Below are positions 6,715 through 31,164 of a stretch of DNA of 64,000 nt, piece by piece (within the stretch, counting starts at the first letter, position 1; every line of letters starts with the position of its first letter). This DNA is from Candidatus Falkowbacteria bacterium (GTDB lineage Bacteria > Patescibacteriota > Patescibacteriia > Patescibacteriales > UBA12465). Position numbers and translations under genes: made by a program. The stretch spans positions 97,188 through 161,187 of the forward strand of contig JBAXJX010000001.1 of the NCBI GenBank assembly GCA_037137655.1, written 5' to 3'. Below the pieces are notes generated by a model that did no database searches, was not told the DNA's origin, and saw nothing but the letters and a program-made list of their open reading frames with translations.

Positions 6715-8436
6715 ATGAAAAATAAACGCGGCTTCACTCTAATTGAATTATTAGTCGTGATCGCCATCATCGGTATCTTGGCGACAATTGCAGTGGTCGC
6801 TTTGCAAAACGCTCGAGCCAAAGCGCGGGATGCTCGGCGGATTGCTGATGTGAAACAAATGCAAACAGCGTTGGAATTATTTTTCAACGACAAACAGCGT
6901 TATCCTACTATAGATGAATTTGCGGCCGGATCAATTTATTCTACTTCAACTTTAGGCACGACAACGTACATGGCCATCATCCCAACTCCGCCAACTCCAG
7001 CGGATGGTGCTTGTAACGCTAGTCAAAATAATTTTGTTTATAAAAATTCCAGCGATGGAAATTCGTATACTATTTCCTATTGCGTTGGTGGTCCGGTGGG
7101 CACATTAAGCTCTGGCGCTAATTGTGCAACGCCAGCGGGAATAAATAGTGGCGCTAATTGTGCTGCTTCCGGTGGTATTATTGCCGGTTGTAGTTCTAGC
7201 TCCTGGACACCAGATTTAAATTCAGCTTGTAGTGGACAAGTAATTACGCAAACTAGCAATTGTGGTTTAACACGACAAATTACAGCTACCGGCTCCGACA
7301 CCTCATGGACGCCAGCGCTTGGCACGGTTTGTAATGGCCAATCTTTTGCACAAAATGGTAATTGCGGTGGCACCCAAACAAGTCTTGGTTCTATGACCTG
7401 TTCTACGGGCCAAGTTTGTGTGAGTGGTACTTGCCAAGCCAGCCAATATACTCTAACTTACTCCGCCGGCACTGGCGGTGTTATTTCTGGAACATCACCG
7501 CAAACTGTAAATTATGGTGCTAGTGGCGCCCAAGTAACGGCCACACCAAATTCTGGTTATAGTTTTAGTTCTTGGAGTGATAATGGTTCTACTTTGGCCG
7601 CTAGAACCGATTCTAATGTGACAGCTAATATTAATGCCACTGCTAGTTTTGTTTGCGCTCCAAGTTGTAGTGGACGTAATTGTGGTAATGATGGTTGCGG
7701 CGGAGTTTGTGGCACTTGCGCCGGTAATTCGGTTTGCAACACTAGCCAAGTTTGTATTGATCCAATTGTTGTTAGTGGTTTAAAATTGTGGTTGCCATTG
7801 GCTAATGAAGTGGTGGATTATTCGAGTTCTCATGTTCCAATGACAAAACTGGCCGGTGTTACTTATGTACCTGGCAGAAAAGGTGTGGCCAGTTCCAGCG
7901 TTTATTTTGCGGGGACAAATTCAAGTTCCAATATTTATTCCACAGCCGCTCTAAGTATGTCGAGCGACAAAGTTGCAATGTCATTTTGGATAAATAGTAA
8001 GTGCACGGTTGGCGGTGAGTTAATCGAATATTCTTCAAACTTTAATGTGAATAATGCTTGGTATGTAGGTTTGACTGATTATTCTTTGGGCGCCGTTTCA
8101 TTTAATGATGCGGTTGGAAACAATACTTATAACTTAAGAGCAATATCTTCAAACTTAAATAACAATTGGCACCATATCGTGATTAATGCTGATCGTAGTC
8201 AAAGCGCCGCTGGCGAGGCCGCAATTTATGTTGATAATGTTTTAACATCTACAGTTCAAGGTGTTGGTGGCAGTTCATACGGAATGGATTTTAGTGGTAA
8301 CTGGGGAAATTACGTTATTTCGCTGGGAGCTAGAATTGGTGCTTCATCATATTTGTATAAAGGAAATTTACAAGACTTAAGAATCTATAATAGATTGTTG
8401 ACCACGAGTGAAATTAGCCTTTTATTTAATGAATAG
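6715..8436 (+). CDS. Type IV pilin-like protein with Cys-rich repeats, InlB-B-repeat-like segment and C-terminal LamG/concanavalin-like domain (573 aa)
   Basis: Prepilin signal MKNKRG|[17 protein letters not shown]. The first roughly 145 aa form a pilin head shared with the paralogs. [15 protein letters not shown]...[12 protein letters not shown] is a B-repeat-like segment. [13 protein letters not shown] motif present. The C-terminus LKLWLPL...[19 protein letters not shown] is typical of Laminin_G_3-type domains. Confidence 0.85.
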
Positions 8437-8447
8437 TTTAATTTTTC

Positions 8448-8474
8448 AAAAAGCGCCATATCGGCGCTTTTTTT
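8448..8474 (+). terminator. Rho-independent terminator
   Basis: aaaaaGCGCC-atatc-GGCGCttttttt. Confidence 0.8.
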
Positions 8475-8498: not shown

Positions 8499-8528
8499 TT
8501 GACTTTTGCCTGGCATCGGCACTATAAT
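8499..8528 (+). promoter_or_regulatory. Sigma-70-type promoter of the ATP synthase operon
   Basis: TTGACT (8499-8504), 18 nt spacer, TATAAT (8523-8528). Confidence 0.7.
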
Positions 8529-8591
8529 TAGAGGTGGAAAAGAGATGTTAAATACAGGGGCCGTTTTAGCTCTTGGTTTATTTTTTTAAAA

Positions 8592-8855
8592 ATGCCTGAA
8601 AAAGACCAAAAAAGTAAAAATGTTGATTTCGTGGAGCCATTAAAAATAGCCACACGTCTTTCAGCTTGGATTGGCTTTCCGGTGGTGATTGGATATTTAA
8701 TTGGATCCTATTTGGATCGTAAATATAACAGCTCACCAAAATGGTTTTTGATTGTTATTGGAATTTCATTTTTTATTTCCATGTTTGGTTTAGTGCGAAG
8801 CGCTTTGGCGGAGTATAAAAAGATTTCACTAGAGGTAAAAGATAAAAAAGATTAA
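8592..8855 (+). CDS. AtpZ/AtpI-like small membrane protein of F-ATPase operons
   Basis: 87 aa with two TM helices. It is the first gene of the atp operon. The pattern WIGFPVVIGYLIGSYLDRKY fits this family. Confidence 0.7.
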   Translation: MPEKDQKSKNVDFVEPLKIATRLSAWIGFPVVIGYLIGSYLDRKYNSSPKWFLIVIGISFFISMFGLVRSALAEYKKISLEVKDKKD

Positions 8856-8857
8856 TT

Positions 8858-9691
8858 ATGTCACAAAATATAGAACAAGCTAATATTGAACCATTACACG
8901 AAAACACGTTATTTGCCGAACCAATTTGGCATGTGGCCGGTTTTCCAATTACCAATTCCTTGCTTAATTCTTGGATTGTTTTGGCCTTGGTTATTGTTTT
9001 AGCAATTTCACTTCGCGGCAAAATTAAAAGTGTACCGACAAAAATTCAAACCGTGTTAGAAGTAGTGATGGAATGGTTCTTGGATATTTTTGACGCTGTG
9101 ACTCATAGTCATAAGAAATCATTACAGTTTTTACCTTTTGTCTTAACTTTTTTCTTTTTTATATTATTGAATAATTGGTTGGGTTTATTGCCGGGTGTCG
9201 GCTCTATTGGCCAAGTGGTCATGCAAAACGGGGAAAAGGTTTTTGTGCCATTTTTACGTGGTGCGACCGCGGATTTGAATACGACATTAGCCCTGGCTAC
9301 AATCGGTGTGGTGGCTAGTCATATTTTTGGTGTCATGGCGATTGGGGCTTGGAATTATCTTAATAAGTTTGTAAATATTAAGGCTTTTTTGGAAATCCCG
9401 AAAAAAATTATGAAAGATCCAGCAATCATTTTGATTAATCCAATTAAAGCTTTCGTGGGTTTAATTGAATTGGTAGGTGAATTGGCCAAAGTAGCTAGTT
9501 TATCTTTCCGTCTTTTTGGTAATATTTTTGCCGGCGAAGTGTTGCTCGCGGCCATGTCCGCAATTTGTGCTTTTGGTTTGCCACTGCCATTTATGTTTCT
9601 GGAAGTTATTGTCGGCTTGATTCAAGCCCTGATCTTTGCTATTTTAATTTTGATATATTTGTCTATTAGCACTAGTGCTGAGGAACATTAA
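8858..9691 (+). CDS. atpB: F0 ATP synthase subunit a
   Basis: Polytopic protein. The motif LSFRLFGNIFAGE contains the conserved Arg of subunit a. Confidence 0.95.
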   Translation: MSQNIEQANIEPLHENTLFAEPIWHVAGFPITNSLLNSWIVLALVIVLAISLRGKIKSVPTKIQTVLEVVMEWFLDIFDAVTHSHKKSLQFLPFVLTFFFFILLNNWLGLLPGVGSIGQVVMQNGEKVFVPFLRGATADLNTTLALATIGVVASHIFGVMAIGAWNYLNKFVNIKAFLEIPKKIMKDPAIILINPIKAFVGLIELVGELAKVASLSFRLFGNIFAGEVLLAAMSAICAFGLPLPFMFLEVIVGLIQALIFAILILIYLSISTSAEEH

Positions 9692-9718
9692 TTTTAAAAT
9701 TTTTAAATTTAAATATAA

Positions 9719-9949
<231 letters not shown>

Positions 9950-9962
9950 TAATTTGACGAAT

Positions 9963-9994
9963 CGCCAAGTCTTAGCGGAATCCAAGACTTGGCG
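9963..9994 (+). other. Perfect 11-bp stem hairpin between atpE and atpF (no T-run)
   Basis: CGCCAAGTCTT-agcggaatcc-AAGACTTGGCG. It is not followed by a U-tract. Confidence 0.6.
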
Positions 9995-10029
9995 TCGGTT
10001 AGTTTATTATTTTATTTGTATTAAAATAT

Positions 10030-10518
10030 ATGGAATCAATTATTTCTACCTTTCATATCGATTGGAAATTGTTAATCGCGCAGGCGGTTAATTTTGCCAT
10101 TATCTTTTTTGTGCTTTACCGTTTTGCTTTTAAACCAATTGCGAAAGTGATGCAAGAAAGAACCGAAACTATTGAAAAAAGTTTACAAGAAGCCAAGGAT
10201 ATTGAGGCCAAACTTAGTGCCACCGAAATCGAACGGGGCGAAATTATTGCTAACGCCAAAAAAGATGCTTTAGCAATTATGGAAAATGCGAATAAAACTG
10301 CTGAAGATAATCGTCAGAAATTAGTTGAAAAAACTAAAGATGAAATTGCTAAAATTATTAAACGCGAAAAAGAGGGAATTGAGGCTGATAAAGTTGCTAT
10401 GATGAAAGAATTGAAACAGGACTTGGCGGAATTAGTAATTTTGGCCACAGAAAAAGTGATTAACGAAAAGATGAGTGATGTTAAAGACAAAAGTTTAATT
10501 GCGGAAATCATTAAATAG
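10030..10518 (+). CDS. atpF: F0 ATP synthase subunit b
   Basis: N-terminal TM helix followed by a long charged coiled coil. Operon position fits. Confidence 0.9.
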   Translation: MESIISTFHIDWKLLIAQAVNFAIIFFVLYRFAFKPIAKVMQERTETIEKSLQEAKDIEAKLSATEIERGEIIANAKKDALAIMENANKTAEDNRQKLVEKTKDEIAKIIKREKEGIEADKVAMMKELKQDLAELVILATEKVINEKMSDVKDKSLIAEIIK

Positions 10519-10521
10519 TTT

Positions 10522-10923
10522 ATGAAAATAACACCAAAACAATACGCTCAGAGTTTATATGAATTAGCGGCTGACAAACCAGAAGCTGAGGTTTTAGTGG
10601 TGTTAAAAACTTTTGTAGAAATGCTTATAAAAAATTTGGATTACGGTAAAATTGATGAAATATTGGCTAATTTCGCCAGAATTTATGATGAAGCACATGG
10701 TGAATTGGCGGTTAACTTAAGTAGCGCTCGAACTTTAAGCGCTGAATCAGAAAGTGATATTGCCAACTATCTAAAAAATAAAACTGGTTTTAGTAAAATA
10801 AATTTTTCTACCAAAATCGATACAGCTCTTATTGGCGGTATGGTGGTGCGTTACGGCGACAAGATTTTGGATGCTAGTTTAAAAAATAATTTAAATAATT
10901 TAAAAGATAAAATAAGTCAATAA
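10522..10923 (+). CDS. atpH: F1 ATP synthase subunit delta (short, 133 aa)
   Basis: Lies between atpF and atpA. The C-terminal [22 protein letters not shown] is OSCP-like. Confidence 0.85.
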
Positions 10924-10927
10924 TAAT

Positions 10928-12445
10928 ATGGCGAATAAAGATTTTATAATTGAACAGATTAAAAAGCAGATTAGTGATTTTAAAAATGAAATCAAAGAAC
11001 AAACTGTTGGTCGTGTTTTGAAAGTGTCTGATGGTATTGCTTTGATCTCCGGTTTAGCTGATGTCATGATGAGTGAAATTTTGATTTTTAAATCCAATGG
11101 TCATGAAATTTCTGGTGTGGCTTTGAACTTAGAAGAGAATATGGTTGGTGCAATTATTCTAGGCGAATTTACTATGATTAAGGAAGGTGATGAAGTACTA
11201 TCAACTAAAAGAATTTTGGAAGTTCCGGTTGGTGAAAAGTTAATTGGTCGAGTTGTTAATCCTCTTGGCGAACCAATTGATGGTAAAGGTAAAATTGAAG
11301 CGGCTGCCTTTTATCCAGTGGAAAAAATTGCGCCGGGTGTTATTACTCGCGCTTCAGTGAAAGATCCGATGCAAACTGGCATTAAGGCGATTGATGCTAT
11401 GATTCCAATTGGTCGTGGTCAACGTGAGCTTATTATTGGTGATCGTCAAATTGGTAAAACAGCGATTGCGATTGATGCAATTATCAACCAAAAAGGCCAA
11501 AACATGAAATGTATTTATGTTGGTATTGGTCAAAAAGAATCTAAGGTAGCTAATATCGTAGCTAAGTTAGAAGAATCTGGGGCCATGGAATATACCACCA
11601 TTGTTTTGGCTGGCGCTTCCAATCCATCTTCCTTATTATATATTGCGCCGTATGCCGGTTGTGCGATGGCCGAATATTTTTTAGACAAAGGTGAAGATGT
11701 TTTAATTGTTTATGATGATTTATCAAAACACGCCGTCGCTTATCGCGAAATCTCTTTGTTATTGCGCCGCCCACCGGGACGTGAAGCTTATCCGGGCGAT
11801 GTCTTTTATTTACATTCCCGACTACTCGAAAGAGCTTGTAAATTAAGTGCTGAATTTGGTGGTGGTTCAATTACCGCTTTGCCAATTATCGAAACTCAAG
11901 CCGGTGATGTCTCCGCTTATATTCCAACTAACGTGATTTCCATTACTGATGGTCAAATTTATTTGGAACCAGATTTATTTTACCAAGGTAATCGTCCAGC
12001 GGTGAATGCTGGCTTGTCAGTTTCGCGCGTTGGTTCTTCCGCTCAAATTAAAGCTATGAAAAAAGTGGCTGGCAAAATGCGTTTGGAAGCAGCCCAATAT
12101 CGTGAATTGGCGGCTTTCGCGCAATTTGGCTCAGATTTGGATATCGATACTAAAAATAAATTGGAACGCGGTAAACGTTTATATGAAATTTTAAAACAAG
12201 ATCAATACGCGCCAGTAGCCGTGGAGAAACAAGTTTTGCTTTACTATGGTTTGATTAATGGATTTTTTGACAATGTCCCGGTTGATCATGTCCGTGAATT
12301 TGAAGCTGGCTTATTAAAATATGCCGACTTAAATAATGACGCTTTGAAATTAATTGTGGACAAAAAAGAATTAAGCGAGGAAGTGGAAGTAGCAGTTAAA
12401 AAAGTGTTGGAAGATTATAAAGCGACTTTGGATTATTTAATTTAA
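10928..12445 (+). CDS. atpA: F1 ATP synthase subunit alpha
   Basis: P-loop GDRQIGKT. 505 aa, conserved throughout. Confidence 0.98.
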
Positions 12446-12447
12446 TT

Positions 12448-13317
12448 ATGGCTCAGACTAAAGAAATATCCCGCCGCATCAAATCAATTGCTAGTACTAA
12501 AAAAATTACTAAGGCAATGGAAATGGTGGCTGCGGCCAAAATGAGAAAAGCGAGCGAAGCCGTTTTAAAAACTCGGGCTTACGCTCATTTGAGTTGGGAA
12601 ACAATTTTAAACTTATCTCGTTTAGCCCAAAGCAAAAATCAAGATTTACATCCTTTGCTTAGTAAGCGGGCTGAGGTGAAGCGTGTGGCTGTAATTTTAA
12701 TTACTTCCAACCGCGGTTTATGTGGTGGTTTTAATGCTGCAATAATTAATAAGGTTAGAGATGCTATTCAAAAAGATGGACTTCCAGCCGATATGATTTT
12801 GGTGGGACGAAAAGGTGCGATTTTACATAATCAAGGTTATGAAGTTGTGGCCGAATTTCCAAAAGCTGATTTGCTTGTAAATTCTAACGAAACCAATCCG
12901 ATCGCCTTGCTAGCTATTGCTGATTTTTTGTCCGGTAAATATGATAAAGTTTTATTAGCTTATACTGATTTTGTTAGTCCGGTAAAACAAGTTCCACGCG
13001 TTAAACAATTATTGCCAGTAGAAATGGATAGTGAAAGTGAAGATGAAGAATTGACTAGTGATTACACTTTTGAGCCGAGTCCAAGTGAAGTTTTAAATCT
13101 AATGATTCCGAAATTGGTGGAAGTCCAATTGTATCAAGCTTTACTTGAATCGAATGCCGCGGAGCACAGCGCTCGGATGACTTCCATGCATCAAGCGACT
13201 GAAGCGGCAACTGATATGGTGAGCGAATTAACTTTGTATTATAACAAAGCGCGTCAAGCTTCGATTACAGCTGAAATTGCAGAAATTAGTGCTGGGGCTA
13301 ACGCTTTAAATGAATAA
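12448..13317 (+). CDS. atpG: F1 ATP synthase subunit gamma
   Basis: N-terminal IKSIASTKKITKAMEMVAAAKMRKA and C-terminal ITAEIAEISAGANAL. Confidence 0.95.
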   Translation: MAQTKEISRRIKSIASTKKITKAMEMVAAAKMRKASEAVLKTRAYAHLSWETILNLSRLAQSKNQDLHPLLSKRAEVKRVAVILITSNRGLCGGFNAAIINKVRDAIQKDGLPADMILVGRKGAILHNQGYEVVAEFPKADLLVNSNETNPIALLAIADFLSGKYDKVLLAYTDFVSPVKQVPRVKQLLPVEMDSESEDEELTSDYTFEPSPSEVLNLMIPKLVEVQLYQALLESNAAEHSARMTSMHQATEAATDMVSELTLYYNKARQASITAEIAEISAGANALNE

Positions 13318-13321
13318 TTAA

Positions 13322-14743
<1,422 letters not shown>

Positions 14744-14751
14744 AATATTTT

Positions 14752-15186
14752 ATGTCTGAAAATAAAACTATAAAATTCGAAATCGTGACTCCAGAAAGAA
14801 CTGTTTTAAAAGAGCAGGTTCTACAAGTAACTGTACCAACGGCTGATGGTGAAATTACAGTTTTGCCCCACCATATTCCTTTGGTCTCAATCTTGCGTCC
14901 TGGTGTGATTGAAGTAAAAAATGAAGCGGGGGAGATGGAAATTATTGCTTGCTCCGGTGGTTTTATTGAGGTGGCTCATGATAAAATTGTAATCTTAGCT
15001 GATACTGCAGAACGGGCGATCGAGCTTGATGAAGCTCGAATTGAAGAAGCGCGCGCTAAAGCAGAGGAACTCAAGAAAAATAAAGATGTCGATGCGGTTA
15101 AATTCGCTGAGGCGAGTGCCATGATTGAAAAACAATTGGCCCGAACCCGAGCAGTTCGTCGCTGGCGCAAATTAAAAAATTTATAG
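14752..15186 (+). CDS. atpC: F1 ATP synthase subunit epsilon
   Basis: N-terminal beta-sandwich (KFEIVTPERTV...) followed by a C-terminal helical hairpin. Last atp gene. Confidence 0.95.
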   Translation: MSENKTIKFEIVTPERTVLKEQVLQVTVPTADGEITVLPHHIPLVSILRPGVIEVKNEAGEMEIIACSGGFIEVAHDKIVILADTAERAIELDEARIEEARAKAEELKKNKDVDAVKFAEASAMIEKQLARTRAVRRWRKLKNL

Positions 15187-15196
15187 TTCGAAATAT

Positions 15197-15736
15197 ATGA
15201 AATTTTTAAAATTGTTAAAAGTTGTTTTATTTCCACCACGCGTAACTGAAAAAGCCAAGAGTTTTAAAGACTCGGGTGATAAAGAATTTGAAGCCGTGGG
15301 AGAAGAAGTGAAAAAGTTAGTAAAAGATTTATATAACGGTCGCTCTTTGCGCATTCGAGCCGTTGATGGTGGCTCGACTAATGGAGAAGAGATTGAGATG
15401 ACCGCTTTGGGAAATGCTTATTACGATATCGATCGTTTTGGTTTGAGCTTTGTGGCTTCACCACGTCATGCTGATATTTTAATGGTGACTGGTCCAGTGA
15501 CTAGAAATTTGGAAACAGCGGTTCGAACAACTTATGAAGCAACACCACATCCTTGCGTTGTCGTGGCCTTGGGAGATGGTGCTTGTACAGGTGGAATCTG
15601 GAAAGATTCTTACGCCGTAGTTGGCCCAGTAGAAGCCGTGATTCCGGTTGATGTTCGTATTCCAGGTGATCCACCAAGTCCAACTGAAATTTTACGCGGT
15701 CTCTTGCAGGCTTTGCGTGTTAAAAAAGATAACTAA
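15197..15736 (+). CDS. NuoB/HycG-like small subunit of a complex-I / group-4-hydrogenase-like module, Fe-S ligands largely missing
   Basis: DRFGLSFVASPRHADILMVTGPVTRN and VIPVDVRIPGDPP are typical of the family. The Cys motifs read VDGGSTNGEE, GDGACTGG and PGDPP. Confidence 0.85.
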   Translation: MKFLKLLKVVLFPPRVTEKAKSFKDSGDKEFEAVGEEVKKLVKDLYNGRSLRIRAVDGGSTNGEEIEMTALGNAYYDIDRFGLSFVASPRHADILMVTGPVTRNLETAVRTTYEATPHPCVVVALGDGACTGGIWKDSYAVVGPVEAVIPVDVRIPGDPPSPTEILRGLLQALRVKKDN

Positions 15737-15746
15737 CACTATTTTT

Positions 15747-17738
15747 ATGGGAATAAGTTCTATTGCTCTAATTTTTTTCGTGACTTTGTCGGTTTTAATG
15801 GCGGCGGCAATTTTTTCTTTATTTAAAAGTACTTTTAAGATTGCGTCATTTTTATTTATTTTAACTGGAGTGTGTGGCACGGTTGCTGGGGCACTTTATT
15901 TTATTAATTTTCCGGGTGCTAAAATAGTATTAACACAATTTGGTTGGTTTTTTGGCTTTGCCCCGACTCTTACTTTTGTCTCCACCATCTTTTTAACTTT
16001 GGTTAATATCGTAGCAGTGGCCGTTGGTGTTTATTCTTTGCGTTATTTGGAAATTTACAAAAATACTTACAGTCCGCTTTTAACTCAGTTTTTGATGATT
16101 GTTTTTGTGTTCGGCATGCAATGCGTGTTACTGGCGAACAATGTTTTTTCTTTTATGGTTTTTTGGGAGTTGATGTCCATCAGTTCTTTTTTCTTAGTGT
16201 TATCCGATAAATCAATTGAATCGTTTAATGCTGCTTTTTTATATTTCATCATGACCCATTTAGGCGCGCTCTCAATTTTGGGCGGCTTTTTAATTCTTGG
16301 CGGTGGATCATTAAATTTGAATTTCAGTGATTTGGCGAGCGCCAGTCAAGCTTTGTCGCCGAGTTTATTGGTTACTTCTTTTTGTTTATTGTTATTCGGC
16401 TTTGGTTCTAAGGCTGGTTTGGTTCCTTTTCATGTCTGGTTGCCGGAAGCGCATCCACAAGCTCCAAGCAATATCTCTGCTTTGATGTCTGGTTTAATGT
16501 TGAAGATTGCCGTATATGAATTTTTGTTAATCGTCCTTAGTTTTACTAATTTACCGCTTTGGATTTCTTTGTTAGTTATGGCACTTGGTTTGATCTCTGG
16601 CTTTGTCGGGGCTTTGCGCGCCGCACTAGAAACCGATATTAAACGCGTTTTTGCTTATAGTAGTATTGAGAATATGGGAATTATTTTTTCCATTCTTGGC
16701 TTAGCTCTTTTTGTATCTTCTTATCATGGCGACGTTTCTTTGGCCGCCTTTGCCTTGCCACTTATTGTCTTTGCCATATTTCACGCTATTAATCATGCTT
16801 TCTTTAAGACCGCTTTATTCCTTTCTAGTGGTGTAATTATCGGACGTTTGCATTCTCGCAGTTTGGAAATTATGGGTGGCATTGCTAAAGCCTTACCATT
16901 ATTTTCCGCTGTTTTCCTATTGGCAATTTTAGGTGCTTTGCCATTACCACCATTTGGTACTTTTTTTGGCGAATGGGGTTTTATAAAAACAATTATTTCT
17001 TTGTTTAGTTTGACGACCGATCAAACAGTGATTGCTGTATTGATTGCTAATATTTCCATGATCGGACTTATTGGTGGTTTGGCGGTGTTTGCCATGATTA
17101 AGACTTTTGCTGTTTCGATGTTAGGCTTACCACGCGATAAACACCATGAAATAAAACCAGAGGCCGGTGATAACTTATTGATTTATCCAATTTTAGTTTT
17201 GGTAGCATTAGTAATCGTGACGGGTATTTTTGCCCAAGCTCTAGTGGCTTTCTTAAAAAATCACATTATTGCTGGTAACGCTATGGCCCCAGTTTTTTCT
17301 GGCTTAGATATTTCTTCGGTATATTTATTTGGGGCGATTGCTTTGTTTGTTTTATTGGCTTATGGTTTGGCTAATTTACTTGGTCGCCGTAAACAAGAAC
17401 GGCTTTATCATACTTGGGATTGCGGCCAAGCAATTGATGCTAGTATGGAATACACTGCTACCGCTTTTGCCGCGCCAATTCGTTTTTTCTTTTCGGGTAT
17501 TATTAAACGTAACCGCGTAATTACAAGCGAACCAATCGTGCCGACTAATATTTGGATTAGAAATTATAAACATCAAATTTCAATTGATTCAGTTTTGCGT
17601 GAAAAAATTTATGAACCGATTGCGAATTTAATGGTTTATTTTTCTGATAAGATAAAAACAATCCAAAATGGCAGAATCCAATATTACTTATTAATATTAT
17701 TCTGTACTTTAATTATTGTATTAAGCATTGCCTTATGA
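15747..17738 (+). CDS. HyfB/NuoL/MrpA-like antiporter-type membrane subunit
   Basis: Polytopic. The motif VPFHVWLPEAHPQAPSNISALMSG is typical of the NuoL/M/N family. The start was moved to the ATG at 15747 (MGISSIALIFF...), 11 nt after the upstream stop. The track start at 15648 overlaps the upstream gene by about 90 nt. Confidence 0.85.
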   Translation: MGISSIALIFFVTLSVLMAAAIFSLFKSTFKIASFLFILTGVCGTVAGALYFINFPGAKIVLTQFGWFFGFAPTLTFVSTIFLTLVNIVAVAVGVYSLRYLEIYKNTYSPLLTQFLMIVFVFGMQCVLLANNVFSFMVFWELMSISSFFLVLSDKSIESFNAAFLYFIMTHLGALSILGGFLILGGGSLNLNFSDLASASQALSPSLLVTSFCLLLFGFGSKAGLVPFHVWLPEAHPQAPSNISALMSGLMLKIAVYEFLLIVLSFTNLPLWISLLVMALGLISGFVGALRAALETDIKRVFAYSSIENMGIIFSILGLALFVSSYHGDVSLAAFALPLIVFAIFHAINHAFFKTALFLSSGVIIGRLHSRSLEIMGGIAKALPLFSAVFLLAILGALPLPPFGTFFGEWGFIKTIISLFSLTTDQTVIAVLIANISMIGLIGGLAVFAMIKTFAVSMLGLPRDKHHEIKPEAGDNLLIYPILVLVALVIVTGIFAQALVAFLKNHIIAGNAMAPVFSGLDISSVYLFGAIALFVLLAYGLANLLGRRKQERLYHTWDCGQAIDASMEYTATAFAAPIRFFFSGIIKRNRVITSEPIVPTNIWIRNYKHQISIDSVLREKIYEPIANLMVYFSDKIKTIQNGRIQYYLLILFCTLIIVLSIAL

Positions 17739-19327
17739 TATTAAATCAAATTTTTGCAACAATTTTGCAAACCATTTTAATTTTATTACTTGCGCCTTTT
17801 GCGGTGGGGCTAACTCGCTTTTTAAAGGCTCGTTTTCAAGGTCGTCGTGGACCATCACCTTTTTTACCGTACTTCGCTTTGGCGACTATGTTCCGTCGTG
17901 AAATGGTAATTTCTAAATCAACTTCTTGGGTTTTTCGCGCGGCACCATTTGTGGTTTTTGCCTCATCTTTAGCCTTGGCTTTGATGTTACCACTCGTTTT
18001 TCGTTTTGGTATTTTTGGATCCTTGGGTGATTTTTTGGTAATTTCCGGTATTGTGATGCTCGGTTCCATTTTCTTGGTTTTTGGCGGTATGGATGCGGCC
18101 AGTGCTTTCGGTGGTATGGGTTCAAGCCGCGAAATGACTTTAGCCGCACTATCGGAAACTTCATTAATTTTAATTTTTGCGACTTTAAGTTTTGTAAATA
18201 AATCATTTCAAGTGGATAATTTATTTGGCGCTCAAAGCGTAGTGGCTCATCCTTATTTATTATTATCGATGTTTGCTTTTGTACTTATTTCTTTGGCGGA
18301 GAATGCACGTTATCCAGTTGACAATCCAGCGACGCACTTAGAACTAACAATGGTGCATGAAGCGATGACGATTGAATATTCTGGTCGCTACTTGGCCTTG
18401 TTGGAATATGCTTCCGCTCTAAAATTAACAGCCTTTTTAATTCTAATCGCTAATTTTTTATTTCCAGCTTTAAGCAGCGCTAACCTTAGTTTGGTTGGCA
18501 TCTTACTGGCCTTATTATTTACCATTCTTAAAGTTAGCGTGCTATGCGCAGTCTTAGCTTTCTTTGAATCTGTTTTTGTGAAGATGCGTTTTTATCGCAT
18601 GAATGAATATTTGTCTTTAGCTTTTTTTGTCGCTTTGTTTGGCTTGATTGTGACTTTATCAGTTATTGGCTTAAATTTTGATTACGCCACTATTTGGGCG
18701 GCCTTGGCAATTTTCTTTGTTGTTTTCTTATTTGGTCGCGTTCGTCTTAATTCTATTTTGCGTTATTATGCTTTATCTTCGATTGCGATCGCTGGCATGG
18801 CCTACAATTTAGCTTTGAGTTCAGAACCGACTGAGGCGCTACATTTATGGATTTTTGCCGGAATTACAATTGCGATTAAAGTAATTTTAGTGCCGCTTAT
18901 TATTCGGACTGCTGAACGTCGTCAAAAACTCACTGCTAATTTACAATCGTTTTTGCGTCCAGCCTCCAGTTATTTCTTAGCTATTATTTTATTGTTGGTA
19001 ATTTATTGTGCCTTACATCGTAGTGCTGTAGAAGGCATAATTGCCTGGAGTAATATGATTTATGTGGCAGTAGTTTTGTCAGTTCTTGGATTAGCGACCA
19101 TGATTGTTCATCGTAATGTTTTCTCTCAGATTATTGGATTATTTATTGTGGAAAACGGTATCGCTGTCTTTATTTTAGCGACAGTAAAATCATTACCGCT
19201 GTTATTGGAGTTAGGTATTTTTGCGGTTGTAGCTCTTAGCGCTGTTATTTTATCAATTCTTAGTTCACAAATTAGAGAACAATATGGTTCCACGGACACG
19301 GAGAACCTACGTAATTTAACTGAATAA
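17735..19327 (+). CDS. Fusion of HycD/HyfC (NuoH-like) and HyfE (NuoK-like) membrane subunits
   Basis: The N-terminal roughly 310 aa have FLKARFQGRRGPSPF and HLELTMVHEAMTIEYSG (HycD/NuoH-like). The C-terminal roughly 215 aa have QIIGLFIVENGIAVFILA (HyfE-like). The ATGA start overlaps the upstream stop. Confidence 0.8.
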   Translation: MILNQIFATILQTILILLLAPFAVGLTRFLKARFQGRRGPSPFLPYFALATMFRREMVISKSTSWVFRAAPFVVFASSLALALMLPLVFRFGIFGSLGDFLVISGIVMLGSIFLVFGGMDAASAFGGMGSSREMTLAALSETSLILIFATLSFVNKSFQVDNLFGAQSVVAHPYLLLSMFAFVLISLAENARYPVDNPATHLELTMVHEAMTIEYSGRYLALLEYASALKLTAFLILIANFLFPALSSANLSLVGILLALLFTILKVSVLCAVLAFFESVFVKMRFYRMNEYLSLAFFVALFGLIVTLSVIGLNFDYATIWAALAIFFVVFLFGRVRLNSILRYYALSSIAIAGMAYNLALSSEPTEALHLWIFAGITIAIKVILVPLIIRTAERRQKLTANLQSFLRPASSYFLAIILLLVIYCALHRSAVEGIIAWSNMIYVAVVLSVLGLATMIVHRNVFSQIIGLFIVENGIAVFILATVKSLPLLLELGIFAVVALSAVILSILSSQIREQYGSTDTENLRNLTE

Positions 19328-19328
19328 T

Positions 19329-20786
19329 ATGAATATTTTTATTATTGCTTTTGCATTTTTAGCGAGTTTAATTTCTTTTTTACTGCCATCACAAAAAGTG
19401 GTGCGTCGGATTGGTGGTATTTTTGCGGCTGTTAATTTTGCGGCTGTGCTAATTTTGGTTTGGCCATATTTAAGTGGCGCCCAAAGAGTTTTTGATGGTG
19501 GCTGGTGGTTAATTGATAGTTTTTCGGCGTTAATGTTGTTGTTGGTTTCCTTTTTATATTTAGCTGCCGCTCTAGTTAGTAATCGCTACCTTAAACATGA
19601 ACACGAAGAAGGAATAATTAGTGATAAAAAAGTTAAACTTTATTTTTCGTTATTACATTTATTTGCTTTGTCGATGTTGGTAGTGTTGCTAGCTAACAAT
19701 ACTTTGTTATTGTGGATCGCTTTAGAGATGACGACTTTATCCTCCGTTTTTTTGGTTGGTTTTTATAAACAAAAATCTTCCATTGAAGCGGCGTGGAAAT
19801 ATGTGATTATTTGTTCCACTGGTATTACCTTGGGACTGATCGGTATTTTATTTTTCAGTTACGGTGCTGGACTAGCTAGCGGTGGCCTAGCGACTATTTT
19901 TTCTTTAAGTGCTTTAATCGCGCAAGCGGCGACAATTCCAGCGGCGATTGCTAAAATTGCTTTCGTCTTTATTTTTGTTGGTTTTGGTGTGAAGGTTGGT
20001 TTAGTACCAATGTATTCTTGGTTGCCAGATGCTCACAGTAAAGCACCATCACCAATCTCCGCTTTCTTTTCTGGTATTTTATTAAATGTTGCCTTGTATG
20101 TAATTATTCGTTTCCAAGTTTTAACTAACGCGGTTATTGGAAACAGTCAGTGGACCACAACTTTATTTTTAGTTTTTGGTTTGGCTTCAGTTTTGTTGCC
20201 GGTGTTTATGATGATTACCCAAAAGAATTACAAACGCTTATTGGCTTATTCTAGTATTGAGCATATGGGTTTGATATTGCTAGCTTTATCAGTACCACCG
20301 CTTGGTATTATTGCAGCCATCATTCATATGATTGGTCACACTTTAGCGAAATCGAGTTTATTTTTTGGCGCCGGTGAAATTTTAATTGCTTACAAAACTA
20401 CTAGTATTGATAAAGTGCGAAATCTATTTAAAAACATTCCACGCACTGGCCTCTTATTTGTGTTAGGAATTTTGGTAATTATTGGTTTACCGCCAACCGC
20501 TTTGTTTATTAGTGAATATACGATGTTTGCCGCTTTAATTAAAGCTCATCTTGGTATCGCTTTGTTGGTGTTTGCGGCTTTGAGCGCGATTGCTTTTGCC
20601 ATGTTACGTTTAACAATCATGATGACTTTGCCAGATTCAAGTGCACCAGTTATGCCGAAAGAGAAATGGAACATTACTCATGTTGTTATGATCAGTGAAA
20701 TTATTTTAGTGGTGTTATTATCATTTTGGATATCATCACCAAGCGGTATGAATTTTATTAATTCAATTGCGCGCAATTTGATTTAA
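19329..20786 (+). CDS. HyfF/NuoN/MrpD-like antiporter-type membrane subunit
   Basis: VPMYSWLPDAHSKAPSPISAFFSG and LLAYSSIEHMG. Confidence 0.85.
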   Translation: MNIFIIAFAFLASLISFLLPSQKVVRRIGGIFAAVNFAAVLILVWPYLSGAQRVFDGGWWLIDSFSALMLLLVSFLYLAAALVSNRYLKHEHEEGIISDKKVKLYFSLLHLFALSMLVVLLANNTLLLWIALEMTTLSSVFLVGFYKQKSSIEAAWKYVIICSTGITLGLIGILFFSYGAGLASGGLATIFSLSALIAQAATIPAAIAKIAFVFIFVGFGVKVGLVPMYSWLPDAHSKAPSPISAFFSGILLNVALYVIIRFQVLTNAVIGNSQWTTTLFLVFGLASVLLPVFMMITQKNYKRLLAYSSIEHMGLILLALSVPPLGIIAAIIHMIGHTLAKSSLFFGAGEILIAYKTTSIDKVRNLFKNIPRTGLLFVLGILVIIGLPPTALFISEYTMFAALIKAHLGIALLVFAALSAIAFAMLRLTIMMTLPDSSAPVMPKEKWNITHVVMISEIILVVLLSFWISSPSGMNFINSIARNLI

Positions 20787-20797
20787 TTATAAACCTT

Positions 20798-22363
20798 ATG
20801 ACTACTATTGAAATTCTAAAAAAATATAAAATTGAAAATTTTTCGGAGCAGGGAAATATGATTACCGTTAAAGTAACTAAAGATGTTTTTACATCCTTAG
20901 CCACTTCTTTGGCCAACGAAGAAAATTTACCTTTGTCGTCGCTTTATGCCACTGATGATCGTCAGGTTAGTAATACTTTTGGTGTGCACGTTTTATTTGC
21001 TAATGACGCGGCGCATGACTGGTTATTGGTTTCAACCGAAGTTTTGACAACAGAGCCAAGTTACCCGTCGTTAACTGCCACGGTTATGGCGGCTCATTGG
21101 TATGAACGTTATTTACATGATATGTTTGGCATCACACCGCTTGGTCATCCAGATTTACGTCGTTTAGTGAGTCATGAAAATGTGCCGGAAAATGTTTATC
21201 CATTACGCAAAGATTTCGCCTGGAATACTAAAATGGAACATGCTAATGTGCCATATCCAATGGCGCACGTGGAAGGTGAGGGAATCTATGAAATTCCAGT
21301 CGGACCAATCCATGCTGGTATTATCGAACCGGGTCATTTCCGTTTTAATGTGGCCGGTGAAAGAATTATAACTTTAGAAGGAAAATTATTTTTTACACAT
21401 AAGGGTATTGAAAAATTAGTGGAAGGTAAAGCTCCACTGGAGGCTTTGCCTTTTATTGAGCGCTTGTCGGGCGACATGGCTGCTGGCCATGCTCTAGCTT
21501 TTTGCCAAGCTGTCGAAGCTTTAGCTGGCTGTGAGGTGCCTAAACGGGCGCAGTTATTGCGTGTTTTATTGTTAGAATTGGAACGCGTAACAATGCATAT
21601 TCACGACTTAGCTAATATTGGTGGTATGGGTACAGGTTTTAGTTTTATTGCAGCTAACGGTTTTCGGATTAAAGAAAGAATGGTGCGCTTATCAGATGAA
21701 TTATTAGGCAATCGTTTTTGGCGCGGTGAAATTGTTCCAGGTGGGGTGGCTAAAGATTTGAGTACCGAGAAATTAGCTGCTATTTTACCAGTATTGCAAG
21801 CAGCTCAAGTTGAAATAAACAAAATTGTTAAAATCGCTTTGTCATCCGATGGTTTTTTGGATCGCTTACAAACTACCGGTGTTTTACCACTTGAAGCGGC
21901 TAAAGCTTTCGGCGGTGTTGGTTTGCCGGTGCGTGCCTCTGGCTTTGATCGTGACGTCCGTCGTGACCATCCCGATGCCGTTTACAAAGAATTGGCAGTC
22001 AATGTTCAATTAAAGACTGTTGGTGATGTTCATGCTCGCTATTTGTGTCGTATTAACGAAATTGATGAATCGGTGCGTTTAATTGACGCAGTGCTTAAGC
22101 AATTGACAGGCAATTCCGATAAGAATATTATAAATGAGTGTCAAATTAAAGATGGTGTAACAATTGGGGCAGTAGAGTCATGGCGCGGTGAAATTATTTG
22201 CGCTTTGCATTTTCAGAATGGTAAAATTAGTCGTTGTTTCCCCCGTGACCCATCATTTTGTAATTGGGCATTATTCGCGATTATTGGCCCAGGGAACATC
22301 GTTCCAGATTTCCCGTTATGCAATAAATCCTTGAATTTGAGCTATTCTGGTACTGATATGTAG
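20798..22363 (+). CDS. NuoC+NuoD-type (HycE/HyfG-like) large subunit lacking all four Ni-Fe cysteine ligands
   Basis: VGPIHAGIIEPGHFRFNVAGERI...HKGIEK is typical of the family. The N-terminal metal motif reads ERLSGDMAAGH. The C-terminus reads SLNLSYSGTDM-stop. Confidence 0.85.
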   Translation: MTTIEILKKYKIENFSEQGNMITVKVTKDVFTSLATSLANEENLPLSSLYATDDRQVSNTFGVHVLFANDAAHDWLLVSTEVLTTEPSYPSLTATVMAAHWYERYLHDMFGITPLGHPDLRRLVSHENVPENVYPLRKDFAWNTKMEHANVPYPMAHVEGEGIYEIPVGPIHAGIIEPGHFRFNVAGERIITLEGKLFFTHKGIEKLVEGKAPLEALPFIERLSGDMAAGHALAFCQAVEALAGCEVPKRAQLLRVLLLELERVTMHIHDLANIGGMGTGFSFIAANGFRIKERMVRLSDELLGNRFWRGEIVPGGVAKDLSTEKLAAILPVLQAAQVEINKIVKIALSSDGFLDRLQTTGVLPLEAAKAFGGVGLPVRASGFDRDVRRDHPDAVYKELAVNVQLKTVGDVHARYLCRINEIDESVRLIDAVLKQLTGNSDKNIINECQIKDGVTIGAVESWRGEIICALHFQNGKISRCFPRDPSFCNWALFAIIGPGNIVPDFPLCNKSLNLSYSGTDM

Positions 22364-22383: not shown

Positions 22384-22412
22384 TTGACAAAACGTTTTAT
22401 TTATGATATAAT
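22384..22412 (+). promoter_or_regulatory. Near-consensus extended -10 sigma-70 promoter
   Basis: TTGACA (22384-22389), 17 nt spacer, TGaTATAAT (22404-22412). Confidence 0.75.
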
Positions 22413-22484: not shown

Positions 22485-23588
22485 ATGTCGAATGATGGTA
22501 GTTTGATCGATTGGTTAAAAGGTGTTAATGGTGAGTACTCGCAGAGATTTTGTAGTCCTGGCGCCCAAGCTGAAAGAAGATCTTTTTGGTTGCGGTATCC
22601 GGTTGGGCTTTTCTGTTTCGGTTGCATGGACGGTCGCAACAATATTCACAACGCTACGGAGTTACCGGCCGGAATAATGAAAAATTATCGTCATGCCGGT
22701 CCTTGGGAATGGTCAAATTCTTTAGACCAACTTTTTTATGGCGATTTGATGCATTGGATTGATCAAGGTAAAGAATGTCTAGTTTTTGTAAGTTATCATT
22801 TTTCGAAATCGAACAAGGATTGGGGCTGTGCTGCTTTTGAATGTAATACTGACAAAGCCATCGCGTCCAATATTAGCTTCAAGGAAAAAATTGACCGAGT
22901 TTATGGCACCGATAGTGCGGTTTTCTCGGTTCTTCTTGGCTTTGAAACTGATGAAGAATCGATGATAATTCATGGCTGCGATTGTGATCAAGTTTTACGA
23001 GTGGCGGATTTGACTGAATTTAATGAGGCTGAGATTAAAGAAACGCTAACAACTTTATTTCCAAAATTTTCTTTAGAAGTTAAGGATTTGTTATTGCGCT
23101 TGATTTCTGGAAATTTTAATCATGTTTCAAAGAACCGTCGAAAAAATCGTCCAGCCATTGCTCTAAATCATAATGAGCGCGTGGTTGCCGTTGGACAAGG
23201 ATTAGGTTGGTTTTATCGTCCAAATCAGGCGATAATTATTGGAATGCATTCCAATAAATCGGGCGAAGCTATAGTAAAAGCGGTTACGATAGTTTATGAA
23301 AATTTACTTAGCGGTCGCATTTCCAGGGAAAAAGGTTTTATTCTTTTGGCGTCAGCCTCATTTCGGCGCGACGTCAGAGCGGAAAAATTGATGGGTTGTG
23401 TGGGAAGTGAAGAAAGAAGGGCTTGTGAGCGGGCCAAGGAAAACATGCGATTTGCCTTGGAAGTGATTGAAGCTGGTTTGCCAGAGGAAATCTATTCCGA
23501 GCTGTTATCGTATATGCATTTCCTTACAGTCATAACCGATTTGGACACCGGAAAATTCATCGAGGTGAAAGATGTTAATCTCGATTAA
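22485..23588 (+). CDS. Hypothetical protein with beta-carbonic-anhydrase-like (CsoSCA/DabA-style) Zn-site pattern; function unverified
   Basis: The CDS itself is well supported by the GGAGG SD, its own promoter and its own terminator. The functional call rests only on FGC47-M-D49-G-R51 (CxDxR), followed 58 residues later by YH105-x9-C115 (VFVSYHFSKSNKDWGCAA). Confidence 0.4.
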   Translation: MSNDGSLIDWLKGVNGEYSQRFCSPGAQAERRSFWLRYPVGLFCFGCMDGRNNIHNATELPAGIMKNYRHAGPWEWSNSLDQLFYGDLMHWIDQGKECLVFVSYHFSKSNKDWGCAAFECNTDKAIASNISFKEKIDRVYGTDSAVFSVLLGFETDEESMIIHGCDCDQVLRVADLTEFNEAEIKETLTTLFPKFSLEVKDLLLRLISGNFNHVSKNRRKNRPAIALNHNERVVAVGQGLGWFYRPNQAIIIGMHSNKSGEAIVKAVTIVYENLLSGRISREKGFILLASASFRRDVRAEKLMGCVGSEERRACERAKENMRFALEVIEAGLPEEIYSELLSYMHFLTVITDLDTGKFIEVKDVNLD

Positions 23589-23610
23589 AAAAACGTTTTG
23601 AAACATTTAG

Positions 23611-23637
23611 AACCCTGCTATAAAGTAGGGTTTTTTT
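23611..23637 (+). terminator. Rho-independent terminator
   Basis: AACCCTGC-tataaa-GTAGGGTT followed by T7. Confidence 0.75.
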
Positions 23638-27345: not shown

Positions 27346-27350
27346 TAAAT

Positions 27351-28385: not shown

Positions 28386-28430
28386 GAAAACCTGGATCCC
28401 CGCCTGCGCGAGGATGACGGTTGAAAAAAT

Positions 28431-30005: not shown

Positions 30006-30008
30006 ACT

Positions 30009-30452
30009 ATGCAACAATTTACCGTACCACAATTTATTGACGTGGAATCAAAAATTATCGGCCCGCTAACGGTGCGCCAGTTTTTGATAATGTTGGCGGC
30101 AGCGGCTTTTATCTTTATTGCTTATAAAGCTTTTGATTTTACTTTGTTCGTTGTTGTGTCGGTGTTTATATTTTTAGCGGCCGTGGTCTTTGCTTTTGTT
30201 AAAGTTAATGGTCAAGGTTTTCATTATTTTATTTTAAATCTCCTTAGTACTTTACGTAAACCAGGTATCCGAATTTGGAATCATCATTTAACAACTTATG
30301 CGGACAGCGAAGAGCGGGAAATAAAATTTGAGAGTACAGAAATAAATAAAAATTTAAAAGCCTCTCAGGTGGCGGAATTATCCTTAGTGGTGGATACTAA
30401 GGGAAGATATCGCGGCAATAATCCTGACGCAGAAGATATTAAAAATCAATAA
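30009..30452 (+). CDS. PrgI-family (VirB3-like) T4SS membrane protein
   Basis: MQQFTVPQFIDVESKIIGPLTVRQFLIM followed by two TM helices, which is the typical PrgI-family N-terminus. It lies just upstream of the VirB4-like ATPase. Confidence 0.65.
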   Translation: MQQFTVPQFIDVESKIIGPLTVRQFLIMLAAAAFIFIAYKAFDFTLFVVVSVFIFLAAVVFAFVKVNGQGFHYFILNLLSTLRKPGIRIWNHHLTTYADSEEREIKFESTEINKNLKASQVAELSLVVDTKGRYRGNNPDAEDIKNQ

Positions 30453-30462
30453 TTTTTAAAAT

Positions 30463-31146: not shown

Positions 31147-31164
31147 TTATTTTCTTAAATAAAT

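Follow-up and report, generated by a model that had tools for sequence, protein, structure and literature searches.

An ATP synthase operon, a cofactor-less complex I-like Ehr module and a carbonic anhydrase gene share a conserved neighbourhood in Patescibacteria: a possible proton-coupled CO2/bicarbonate system

Introduction

Carbonic anhydrases (CAs) working vectorially on complex I-like subunits are already known. In the DAB systems DabA has a beta-carbonic anhydrase fold, DabB is complex I-like, and CO2 hydration is unidirectional; DAB2 is a vectorial CA that depends on the proton-motive force (pmf) and is seated on a complex I-like proton subunit (bioRxiv 10.64898/2026.03.13.711513). The cyanobacterial NDH-1MS couples proton pumping to CO2 hydration (PMC6981117), and complex I of plant and protist mitochondria carries gamma CA subunits on its membrane arm. 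In this work we analysed a stretch of 64,000 nucleotides (hereafter the window) from a genome of Candidatus Falkowbacteria, in which a complete F1Fo ATP synthase operon (atp), five genes of a complex I-like module without redox cofactor ligands (ehr) and the gene of a CA homologue follow each other on the + strand.

The source organism is an ultra-small member of the Candidate Phyla Radiation (CPR, Patescibacteria). Bacteria of this group live by fermentation; they possess an ATP synthase without having a respiratory chain, and it has been proposed that the enzyme runs in reverse (PMC11665869). The Ehr clade of the CPR is also known: Jaffe et al. (2020) described a monophyletic CPR clade without metal-binding cysteines, inferred to be unable to interact with H2 (PMC7304191). 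That paper contains none of the terms 'ATP synth', 'complex I' and 'carbonic', thus the linkage to the atp operon and to CA genes is an addition to it. In the searchable literature, whose coverage leaves most subscription journals outside, we found no report of an operon linkage between Ehr and ATP synthase, or of four CA lineages recruited to Ehr. We know of no substrate for any member of the Ehr family.

The locus shares with the DAB systems that a CA-fold protein is encoded beside complex I-type antiporter-like subunits, that there is no redox input and that pmf would be the source of energy; moreover, the CA family found in the CPR adjoins genuine DabA genes in other organisms. It differs from them in that the CPR CAs are CsoSCA-type, Pro_CA_2, gamma-class or small beta-like proteins, and in that the membrane part consists of five subunits, including homologues of NuoB, NuoCD and NuoH, instead of a single DabB. 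DabA (PF10070) had no match in the window; PF10070 was found only in unrelated metagenome loci containing the same CA family. The feature common with NDH-1MS and NDH-1MS' (NdhD3/F3/CupA/CupS) is a complex I-type machine associated with CO2 hydration, the window cluster being known from genes alone. NDH-1MS is, however, driven by electron transfer from ferredoxin to plastoquinone, and has retained its iron-sulphur (FeS) clusters. To our knowledge, CupA is not homologous to the CAs beside ehr. The mitochondrial enzymes differ in being full, redox-active complex I, whereas the association seen in the CPR is genomic only.

By analogy with DAB and NDH-1MS, the cluster may encode a proton-coupled CO2/bicarbonate system, energised by the ATPase, in a bacterium that has no respiratory chain. 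Of the readings considered we favour this one, but only tentatively, as we rate it slightly less likely than not.

Results and discussion

The ehr genes encode a Hyf-like module without metal ligands

The five genes between atpC and the CA gene constitute the CPR-specific, Hyf-like Ehr module. The first codes for EhrB (15197-15736, PF01058), a small subunit of the NuoB/HycG/MbhJ type without a [4Fe-4S] site. It is followed by the genes of EhrL (15747-17738, PF00361), a HyfB/NuoL-like antiporter-like subunit; EhrH (17735-19327), in which a NuoH/HyfC-like part (residues 1-310) is fused to a HyfE/NuoK-like one (residues 330-528); EhrM (19329-20786), an antiporter-like subunit resembling HyfF and NuoM/N; and EhrCD (20798-22363), a NuoC-NuoD/HycE-like large subunit without NiFe ligands, whose best solved match is HycE. 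EhrH and EhrM were assigned with Pfam and NCBIfam. The start of EhrL was taken to be the ATG at 15747, not the TTG at 15648 of the open reading frame (ORF) finder listing. A deposited protein of Candidatus Falkowbacteria has the same sequence as EhrB (100% identity).

The subunits are closest to HycE/HycG of the E. coli formate hydrogenlyase and to MbhJ/MbhL of Pyrococcus. In the comparison with Hyf/Hyc (7z0s) the best solved homologues are HycE and HycG, the latter matching EhrB with E 1e-27, and the set found in the window resembles HyfB, HyfC, HyfE, HyfF, HyfG and HyfI, but the NiFe ligands, the FeS cluster site, HycF/HyfH, formate dehydrogenase and the maturation genes are missing. The NCBIfam scores of the module subunits were all under the family cut-offs (the family nearest to EhrL was HyfB, with 448 bits vs. 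a cut-off of 667), and there was secondary similarity to Mrp A/D subunits.

When EhrCD was aligned to HycE (7z0s_E, E 6e-70), RVCGICGFAH corresponded to RLSGDMAAGH, and DPCYSCTD to NLSYSGTD, i.e. all four NiFe cysteines are replaced, by S, M, S and G, and the same is true for about 67 homologues. Similarly, GSCNGCDIE and PGCPP of Pyrococcus MbhJ read GSTNGEEIE and PGDPP in EhrB. Three of the four FeS cysteines of EhrB are thus replaced, while C130 is mostly kept, with Ile in some homologues; the substitutions are kept in 80 homologues. The substitute motifs SGD, LSYSGTD, STNxEE and PGDPP are conserved across approximately 70-80 homologues, which indicates that the Ehr proteins are under selection and not decaying. 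The description of the module as cofactor-less in the initial annotation is therefore borne out, both by the alignments to HycE and MbhJ and by the conservation among homologues.

Several known enzyme types could be compared with this gene set. As in the Ehr clade of PMC7304191, the large subunit groups with relatives of group 4 NiFe hydrogenases and the metal-binding cysteines are missing; group 4-like large and small subunits are accompanied by NuoH-like and antiporter-like subunits. The features of a group 4 [NiFe] hydrogenase are lacking: there are no L1/L2 CxxC pairs, there is no four-Cys FeS set, and no HycF/NuoI-type 2x[4Fe-4S] ferredoxin subunit occurs among the five genes. The names given by NCBI and JGI, which imply a true hydrogenase or formate hydrogenlyase, were rejected on the grounds that all NiFe and three of the four FeS ligands are absent. 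The cluster does not encode a complex I either, as there are no NuoE, F, G or NuoI genes in it and the N2 ligands are lost. As regards Mrp, there are two antiporter-like subunits and NuoH-like and NuoK-like parts, but no MrpE/F/G-like ORFs.

Since Ehr is incapable of redox chemistry, an ion gradient is the only form of energy that it can exchange. EhrL and EhrM retain invariant Glu, Lys and His residues, and EhrH has many invariant Glu, Asp and Arg residues, with a run of acidic residues in its NuoH-like part. Judged from the sequences, these conserved charged residues appear to be of the kind that line ion paths. At the former [4Fe-4S] site of EhrB we noticed a set of near-invariant acidic or polar residues (T61, N62, E64, E65, E67, D127 and D158), which could form a new cation- or proton-binding site.

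The atp-ehr neighbourhood is conserved

The F1Fo operon of the window is complete: all eight core subunits and AtpZ are encoded in the same orientation, in the order atpZ-B-E-F-H-A-G-D-C, as identified by Pfam. The first gene (8592-8855; PF09527 ATPase_gene1, E 1.6e-8) encodes a small AtpZ/AtpI-like membrane protein, and is followed by atpB (Fo subunit a, 8858-9691; PF00119, E 3e-39), atpE (Fo subunit c, 9734-9949; PF00137, E 8e-17), atpF (subunit b, 10030-10518; PF00430, E 1e-20), atpH (delta, 10522-10923; PF00213, E 3e-25), atpA (alpha, 10928-12445; PF00006, E 6.5e-84), atpG (gamma, 12448-13317; PF00231, E 1e-89), atpD (beta, 13355-14743; PF00006, E 3e-74) and atpC (epsilon, 14752-15186; PF02823, E 8e-28). 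Helix 2 of subunit c reads AEAV, not ES/T, and helix 1 has no Gln. We take the helix-2 ES/T and the helix-1 Gln motif, as in Ilyobacter tartaricus, to be the marks of Na+-binding c subunits. The sequence thus suggests a subunit c of the H+ type.

The distribution of ehr was surveyed in the GTDB set (one genome per species) by scanning with a NuoB-like (EhrB) profile; 80 loci with flanks of up to 10 kb per side were kept, and the window proteins were mapped onto them. The linkage to atpC could be judged for 63 CPR loci, 9 further CPR loci being too short to call. In 50 of the 63 informative loci atpC was found upstream of ehr on the same strand, mostly together with the whole atpB-C operon, and in the other 13 it was not upstream. 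The adjacency recurs in CPR lineages labelled Uhrbacteria, Moranbacteria, Parcubacteria and Peribacteria. When pairwise AtpA/AtpD and EhrCD/EhrM distance matrices were compared for 34 loci, the Mantel r was 0.80-0.83, as against 0.90-0.94 for within-complex controls. It can be stated that the adjacency, which the initial annotation had left to a survey of relatives, is neither unique to this genome nor accompanied by independent assortment of the two gene sets.

The junction itself is another matter. The same 10-nt junction recurs in an 87%-identical relative (L081/L082), with 96% identity over the 81 nt around it, and atpC-ehrB gaps of 10-57 nt are limited to the window, L081/L082, L010, L016, L025 and L041. 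About 15 of 50 relatives have a terminator-like hairpin 30-110 nt past the end of atpC, and in many of these a promoter-like site comes next (e.g. TTGACG-17-TATCAT); the atpC-ehrB slot often holds inserted genes coding for a CA, a GGDEF protein or a PD-(D/E)XK nuclease. The tight atp-ehr fusion is thus lineage-specific, and the hairpins and insertions indicate that what is conserved is the neighbourhood, not a stoichiometric co-transcription. The stoichiometric partnership through a shared transcript, which had been suggested initially, does not hold as the conserved feature. A 10-nt gap by itself carries little meaning; it is the conservation that exceeds chance. We also considered that ehr was inserted horizontally behind atp in recent times, but rejected this on account of the even GC content over the two gene sets, the junction shared with L081/L082 and the agreeing distance matrices.

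A simple explanation would be that the gene order is inherited without any coupling, as a frozen accident of an ancestral CPR bacterium, with the 10-nt gap arising from intergenic loss in a streamlined genome. Synteny and the Mantel correlation are both expected from vertical descent, in many relatives the two sets are separated by a terminator-like hairpin and a promoter-like site, and atp is not upstream in 13 informative CPR loci. We nevertheless consider this explanation quite unlikely: the atpC-ehrB slot was remodelled many times (by CA, GGDEF and nuclease genes) and yet the adjacency persisted, the genes flanking the atp-ehr pair vary by lineage (helicase, LeuRS, DUF4349, GroEL), and one locus has a second atpZBEF set directly before ehr.

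The last-mentioned locus (L054:7823-20350, Moraniibacteriota) has atpZ-atpB-atpE-atpF sets on either side of an Ehr module and a Pro_CA_2 gene, so that the second Fo gene set directly precedes ehr. There were other peculiar arrangements among the relatives. GGDEF (diguanylate cyclase) genes lie between atpC and ehrB at L017:7909-8979, L060:412-1230, L083:9099-9923 and L084:4749-5423, and the lineages with this insertion include another Falkowbacteria genome. Just upstream of ehrB at L077:8018-9942 there are truncated ORFs similar to ATP synthase alpha (266 aa) and beta (372 aa), in which nothing but the N-terminal barrel and a portion of the nucleotide domain is left, and which may represent a degenerating or repurposed F1. 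A DUF4349 protein of about 310-400 aa is encoded downstream of ehrCD in 13 loci (L002, L006, L009, L010, L011, L016 and 7 others), in some of which, e.g. L010 and L016, no CA was found within the locus.

The cofactor-less module also occurs in 8 loci of Acidobacteriota (GC content about 0.70), without atp. In L068-L070, L073, L074, L078 and L080 the module has five genes, and EhrB is 63-69% identical to the CPR protein, which suggests transfer between the phyla. In at least two of these loci (L070, L073) a CbiQ-domain protein of 627-629 aa is encoded downstream of the module. The Acidobacteriota neighbours (Sortilin/BNR, CbiQ-domain and DUF2911 proteins) provided no functional lead.

Carbonic anhydrase genes of four lineages stand next to ehr

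The recurrent association with CA genes is the strongest clue to function. Within the fetched loci, 57 from the CPR and 7 from Acidobacteriota were informative in this respect, and 44 of the 57 CPR loci had at least one CA. The CA genes belong to four lineages and occupy two positions, the slot between atpC and ehrB and the one immediately behind ehrCD. The CsoSCA-like gene was found in the atpC-ehrB slot or directly 3' of ehrCD, Pro_CA_2 (PF20393, E 2e-16) in these positions in 6 loci, and a Cam-type gamma CA (E 3e-20 to 1qrf/1thj) downstream of ehrCD also in 6 loci. The Cam-like gene matches, more weakly, the gamma CA subunits of mitochondrial complex I as well. The fourth lineage, present in Uhrbacteria-type loci, is a family of 205-270 aa with invariant C-x-D and H-x-P-C. 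The top 50 Foldseek matches of its AlphaFold2 model (mean predicted local distance difference test, pLDDT, 84; predicted template modelling score, pTM, 0.82) in the PDB were all beta CAs, with modest similarity (E about 4e-4, template modelling (TM) score about 0.4). An assignment of this family to CsoSCA by sequence was rejected (hhalign probability 0.5%, no Pfam match, best PDB sequence E 0.036). On the strength of the model it can be considered as possibly beta-carbonic anhydrase-like, an assignment not proven.

The CA gene of the window (22485-23588), to which the initial annotation referred as the following gene without recognising it as a CA, codes for a protein of 367 aa, which matches the Pfam family CsoSCA_cat, PF20686, with 30.7 bits (cut-off 21.5). 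A profile made from 21 homologues matched CsoSCA (8thm) over full length with E 1.2e-14, and 2fgy also with about 1e-14; in the alignment to 8thm the CxDGR and H...GC motifs are paired. C47-x-D49-x-R51, H105 and C115 are invariant in the 21 homologues. The AlphaFold2 model (pLDDT 75) matched 8thm with a Foldseek E of 3e-13 and a TM score of 0.66. The protein is thus predicted, from sequence and model, to share with the carboxysomal CsoSCA the fold of the catalytic domain, the Cys-His-Cys zinc ligands and the Asp-Arg dyad of the active site, and we classify it as a homologue of CsoSCA-type (beta/epsilon-class) CAs. It differs from the carboxysomal enzymes in its size (462 aa in 8thm of Cyanobium and 542 aa in 2fgy of Halothiobacillus), in its NCBIfam CsoSCA equivalog score (38 vs. 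a cut-off of 241) and in its context, as there are no carboxysome shell or Rubisco genes among the annotated genes of the window. The profile match begins only at residue 128 of 8thm, which leaves most of the N-terminal region unmatched.

In a reciprocal approach we looked at 80 metagenome loci, which were retrieved starting from the CsoSCA-like CA family. The CsoSCA-like gene stood between atpC and ehrB in L085 and L133; in L093 and L099 it immediately preceded ehrB, and upstream there was either no atp or no sequence. Directly after atpC, with no Ehr, it was found in 7 loci (L102, L103, L108, L116, L117, L119 and L121), and after DabA (PF10070, E 2e-247) and four antiporter-like genes in 8 loci. 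In further loci it adjoined a SulP-family transporter, some of these loci having also an Ehr-like set in a different order (L-H-M-CD-B), and some loci had no obvious partner. These contexts show that the CsoSCA-like family is repeatedly tied to inorganic carbon transport and to proton-translocating machinery.

Two of the metagenome contexts have features of their own. The DAB-type cluster of L134:522-11035 (also found in L104, L105, L122, L123, L132, L135 and L160) is unusual, being far larger than the two-gene DabAB: in L134 an antiporter-like gene, DabA (1090 aa), three antiporter-like genes and the CsoSCA-like CA follow each other. In loci with atpC and CA but no Ehr, a protein of 531-533 aa is encoded after the CA gene (L102:11217-12818, L117:11164-12759). 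It carries the beta-carbonic anhydrase-like motifs CMDVR and HLYCAAGG, and had no detectable homology to the CA profile, Pfam or PDB sequences.

The loci in which the CA gene directly follows atpC raise the possibility that the CA serves the ATP synthase, CO2 hydration replacing the exported protons in a tiny cytoplasm, and that Ehr consumes or regulates the gradient independently. Acid-secreting animal cells pair an H+-ATPase with carbonic anhydrase II, and besides the 7 metagenome loci just mentioned, the CA gene stands immediately after atpC and before ehrB in 9 genome loci. This explanation seems rather unlikely to us. The CA gene lies directly upstream of ehrB, with no atpC match upstream, in six genome loci (L007, L029, L052, L059, L061 and L066; the upstream 10 kb was searched in at least four of them, L007, L029, L052 and L061) and likewise in the metagenome loci L093 and L099. 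Moreover, the CA family is linked with DabA/DabB and with the differently ordered Ehr-like set. The CA-ehrB loci without atpC and the DabA/DabB linkage point to antiporter-like proteins as the partners of the CA, rather than to F1Fo.

Transcriptional layout of the cluster and flanking genes

The initial annotation described the atp and ehr genes as a transcriptionally fused 14-gene unit between two terminators, and the coordinates that it gave were all confirmed. A terminator-like hairpin (8448-8472; 10-bp stem with 5 GC pairs, then TTGTATGTTT) closes the upstream pilin-like gene, and is followed by the putative promoter of the unit, TTGACT-18-TATAAT at 8499-8528; with 11/12 matches, this scored higher than any other promoter-like site on the + strand ahead of the cluster. 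It must be noted that promoter-like sites are defined here as consensus matches only. The closing terminator-like hairpin (23609-23634; 11-bp stem, then TTTATTGCCA) is 3' of the CA gene. As there is no terminator between 22363 and the CA gene, the terminator-bounded unit has 15 genes; the 14 genes are contiguous up to 22363, as claimed, but the CA gene has to be included. The intergenic gaps between 8592 and 22363 are 2, 42, 80, 3, 4, 2, 37, 8, 10, 10, -4, 1 and 11 nt; the packing is indeed tight, with a range of -4 to 80 nt instead of the 0-80 nt given initially.

The atpC stop codon (TAG, 15184-15186) and the next ATG (15197) were found as annotated, together with the 10-nt spacer ttcgaaatat (15187-15196), which has no Shine-Dalgarno sequence, hairpin or T-run. 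The scan found no + strand promoter-like site of 9/12 or more matches between 14403 and 16216, and no terminator-like site within the intergenic gaps of the unit. The RNA fold of 15120-15260 was not more stable than shuffled sequence (z = 0.26), and this value and the empty scan led us to reject the idea that the junction conceals a terminator or a structured element. The fusion is thus contiguous, co-oriented and unpunctuated here and in the close relative, but it is not conserved across relatives. From the sequence we infer that in this genome atp through ehr are probably transcribed as a single mRNA.

There are no Shine-Dalgarno sequences before the atp or ehr genes, whose leaders are A/T-rich. 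The single GGAGG Shine-Dalgarno of the cluster precedes the CA gene, 3' of a perfect extended -10 promoter-like site found in the consensus scan (TTGACA-17-TATAAT with TG, 22384-22412, + strand), which the initial annotation had overlooked. A second promoter-like site (11/12) is at 22103-22131. The contrast in Shine-Dalgarno and promoter sequences suggests a different regime of translation initiation and possibly high expression of the CA.

Two hairpins of the unit deserve mention. An 11-bp hairpin without T-run lies between atpE and atpF (9963-9994); its presence without a U-tract had been noted before, and it failed our T-run criterion as well. The stem is preserved through compensatory substitutions in the 87%-identical relative L081, and the hairpin may stabilise the mRNA or act as an attenuator, and so set the stoichiometry of subunit c. 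The other one, a terminator-like hairpin with a T-run, is at 8555-8575 in the 5' untranslated region, between the promoter-like site at 8499-8528 and the atpZ start at 8592; it may be a leader attenuator or a product of chance.

The gene upstream of the atp promoter (6715-8436) codes for a type IV pilin-like protein of 573 aa with an N-terminal methylation motif, a Flg_new repeat and LamG-like domains. Downstream of the cluster, the region 24178-33111 encodes a multi-pass membrane protein of 1055 aa, several ORFs without Pfam match and a TraG/VirB4-like P-loop ATPase (31165-33111), and has the appearance of a type IV secretion-like cluster. In the 87%-identical relative the CA gene is likewise followed by a homologous large gene of about 993 codons.

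Possible mechanism

The identities of the genes, the loss of cofactor ligands, the conserved neighbourhood and the recurrent recruitment of CAs are established by the comparisons described above. The precedents of DAB and NDH-1MS, together with the fermentative life of CPR bacteria, which have an ATP synthase but lack a respiratory chain, led us to the following proposal. F1Fo would hydrolyse ATP derived from fermentation and export protons. Having no energy from electron transfer, Ehr would let the protons return through its antiporter-like subunits, and, by analogy with DabAB and NDH-1MS/CupA, this proton flow might be coupled to the CA reaction. The outcome would be vectorial CO2 hydration, which traps bicarbonate in the cell, or, equivalently, by which the cytoplasm regains protons. 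In this lineage atp and ehr would be expressed from one promoter (8499-8528) to one terminator (23609-23634), with the CA gene boosted by its own, apparently strong promoter and Shine-Dalgarno sequence. We infer the physical association of the proteins, the direction of the proton flow and the physiological role from these analogies.

Several points weigh against such a proton-coupled CO2/bicarbonate system. The whole mechanism is built on sequence and neighbourhood, and vertical inheritance alone can account for the synteny as well as for the Mantel correlation. In all likelihood the CsoSCA-like protein is soluble, its model has pLDDT values under 50 at residues 48-51, in the active-site loop, and its gene has a promoter-like site of its own in the window. 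The hairpins after atpC in relatives indicate that co-expression is not obligatory. In 13 of the 57 informative CPR loci there was no CA within the fetched locus, and the 7 informative Acidobacteriota loci had neither atp nor CA nearby, thus ehr can occur with neither partner in cis. The partner of the CA in the atpC-CA loci without Ehr could be the ATP synthase, or pmf in general. Finally, a bicarbonate pump has no obvious use in a fermenter that is not autotrophic.

The CA-less loci of both phyla would be easier to understand if Ehr were an Mrp-like cation/proton antiporter or a pH-homeostasis device, which converts the gradient made by the ATPase into a Na+ or K+ gradient, the CA being a housekeeping neighbour. 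The antiporter-like subunits with their conserved charged and His residues and the secondary similarity to Mrp A/D in NCBIfam fit this explanation, and ATPase-driven antiport was already proposed for the CPR (PMC11665869). It is, however, hard to ascribe to chance that four unrelated CA lineages occur at the same two positions, or that the same CsoSCA-like family stands beside DabA and SulP. The strongly conserved NuoB-, NuoCD- and NuoH-like parts would be superfluous for a plain antiporter, and equivalents of MrpE, F and G are missing. We consider an antiporter unlikely, though it deserves serious attention. The suggestion of ion-gradient interconversion or pmf homeostasis driven by ATP hydrolysis, made in the initial annotation, is compatible with the data, but it is too generic and missed the association with CAs.

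The same neighbourhood evidence could be read in the opposite direction: Ehr and the CA would act as a primary, respiration-independent proton exporter driven by the hydration of CO2 from metabolism or from a host (a kind of end-product energy recycling) and would feed the ATP synthase, which would answer why CPR bacteria keep this enzyme without a respiratory chain (PMC11665869). By our own estimate, CO2 hydration near neutral pH yields a few kJ/mol, well under the cost of exporting one proton against a normal pmf. Furthermore, DAB and NDH-1MS consume gradient or redox energy and do not produce it (PMC6981117; bioRxiv 10.64898/2026.03.13.711513). We regard this reverse mode as highly unlikely, and we give as little credit to the less radical idea that the atp, Ehr and CA proteins form one supercomplex.

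Conclusions

The swap among four CA lineages at one genomic position is a strong comparative-genomic signal. The finding bears directly on the role of the ATP synthase in CPR bacteria (PMC11665869). The triad of atp, a cofactor-less complex I relative and CA offers a concrete, testable answer, in which a proton-coupled CO2/bicarbonate (or pH) system would draw its energy from the ATPase. If this is true, the chemistry of 'vectorial carbonic anhydrases', hitherto represented by the NDH-1MS and DAB pumps, would extend beyond autotrophs, and the enigmatic Ehr family would gain a job. Were Ehr and the CA a primary proton pump after all, this would be a new mode of energy conservation, and would explain why CPR bacteria have retained their ATP synthase.

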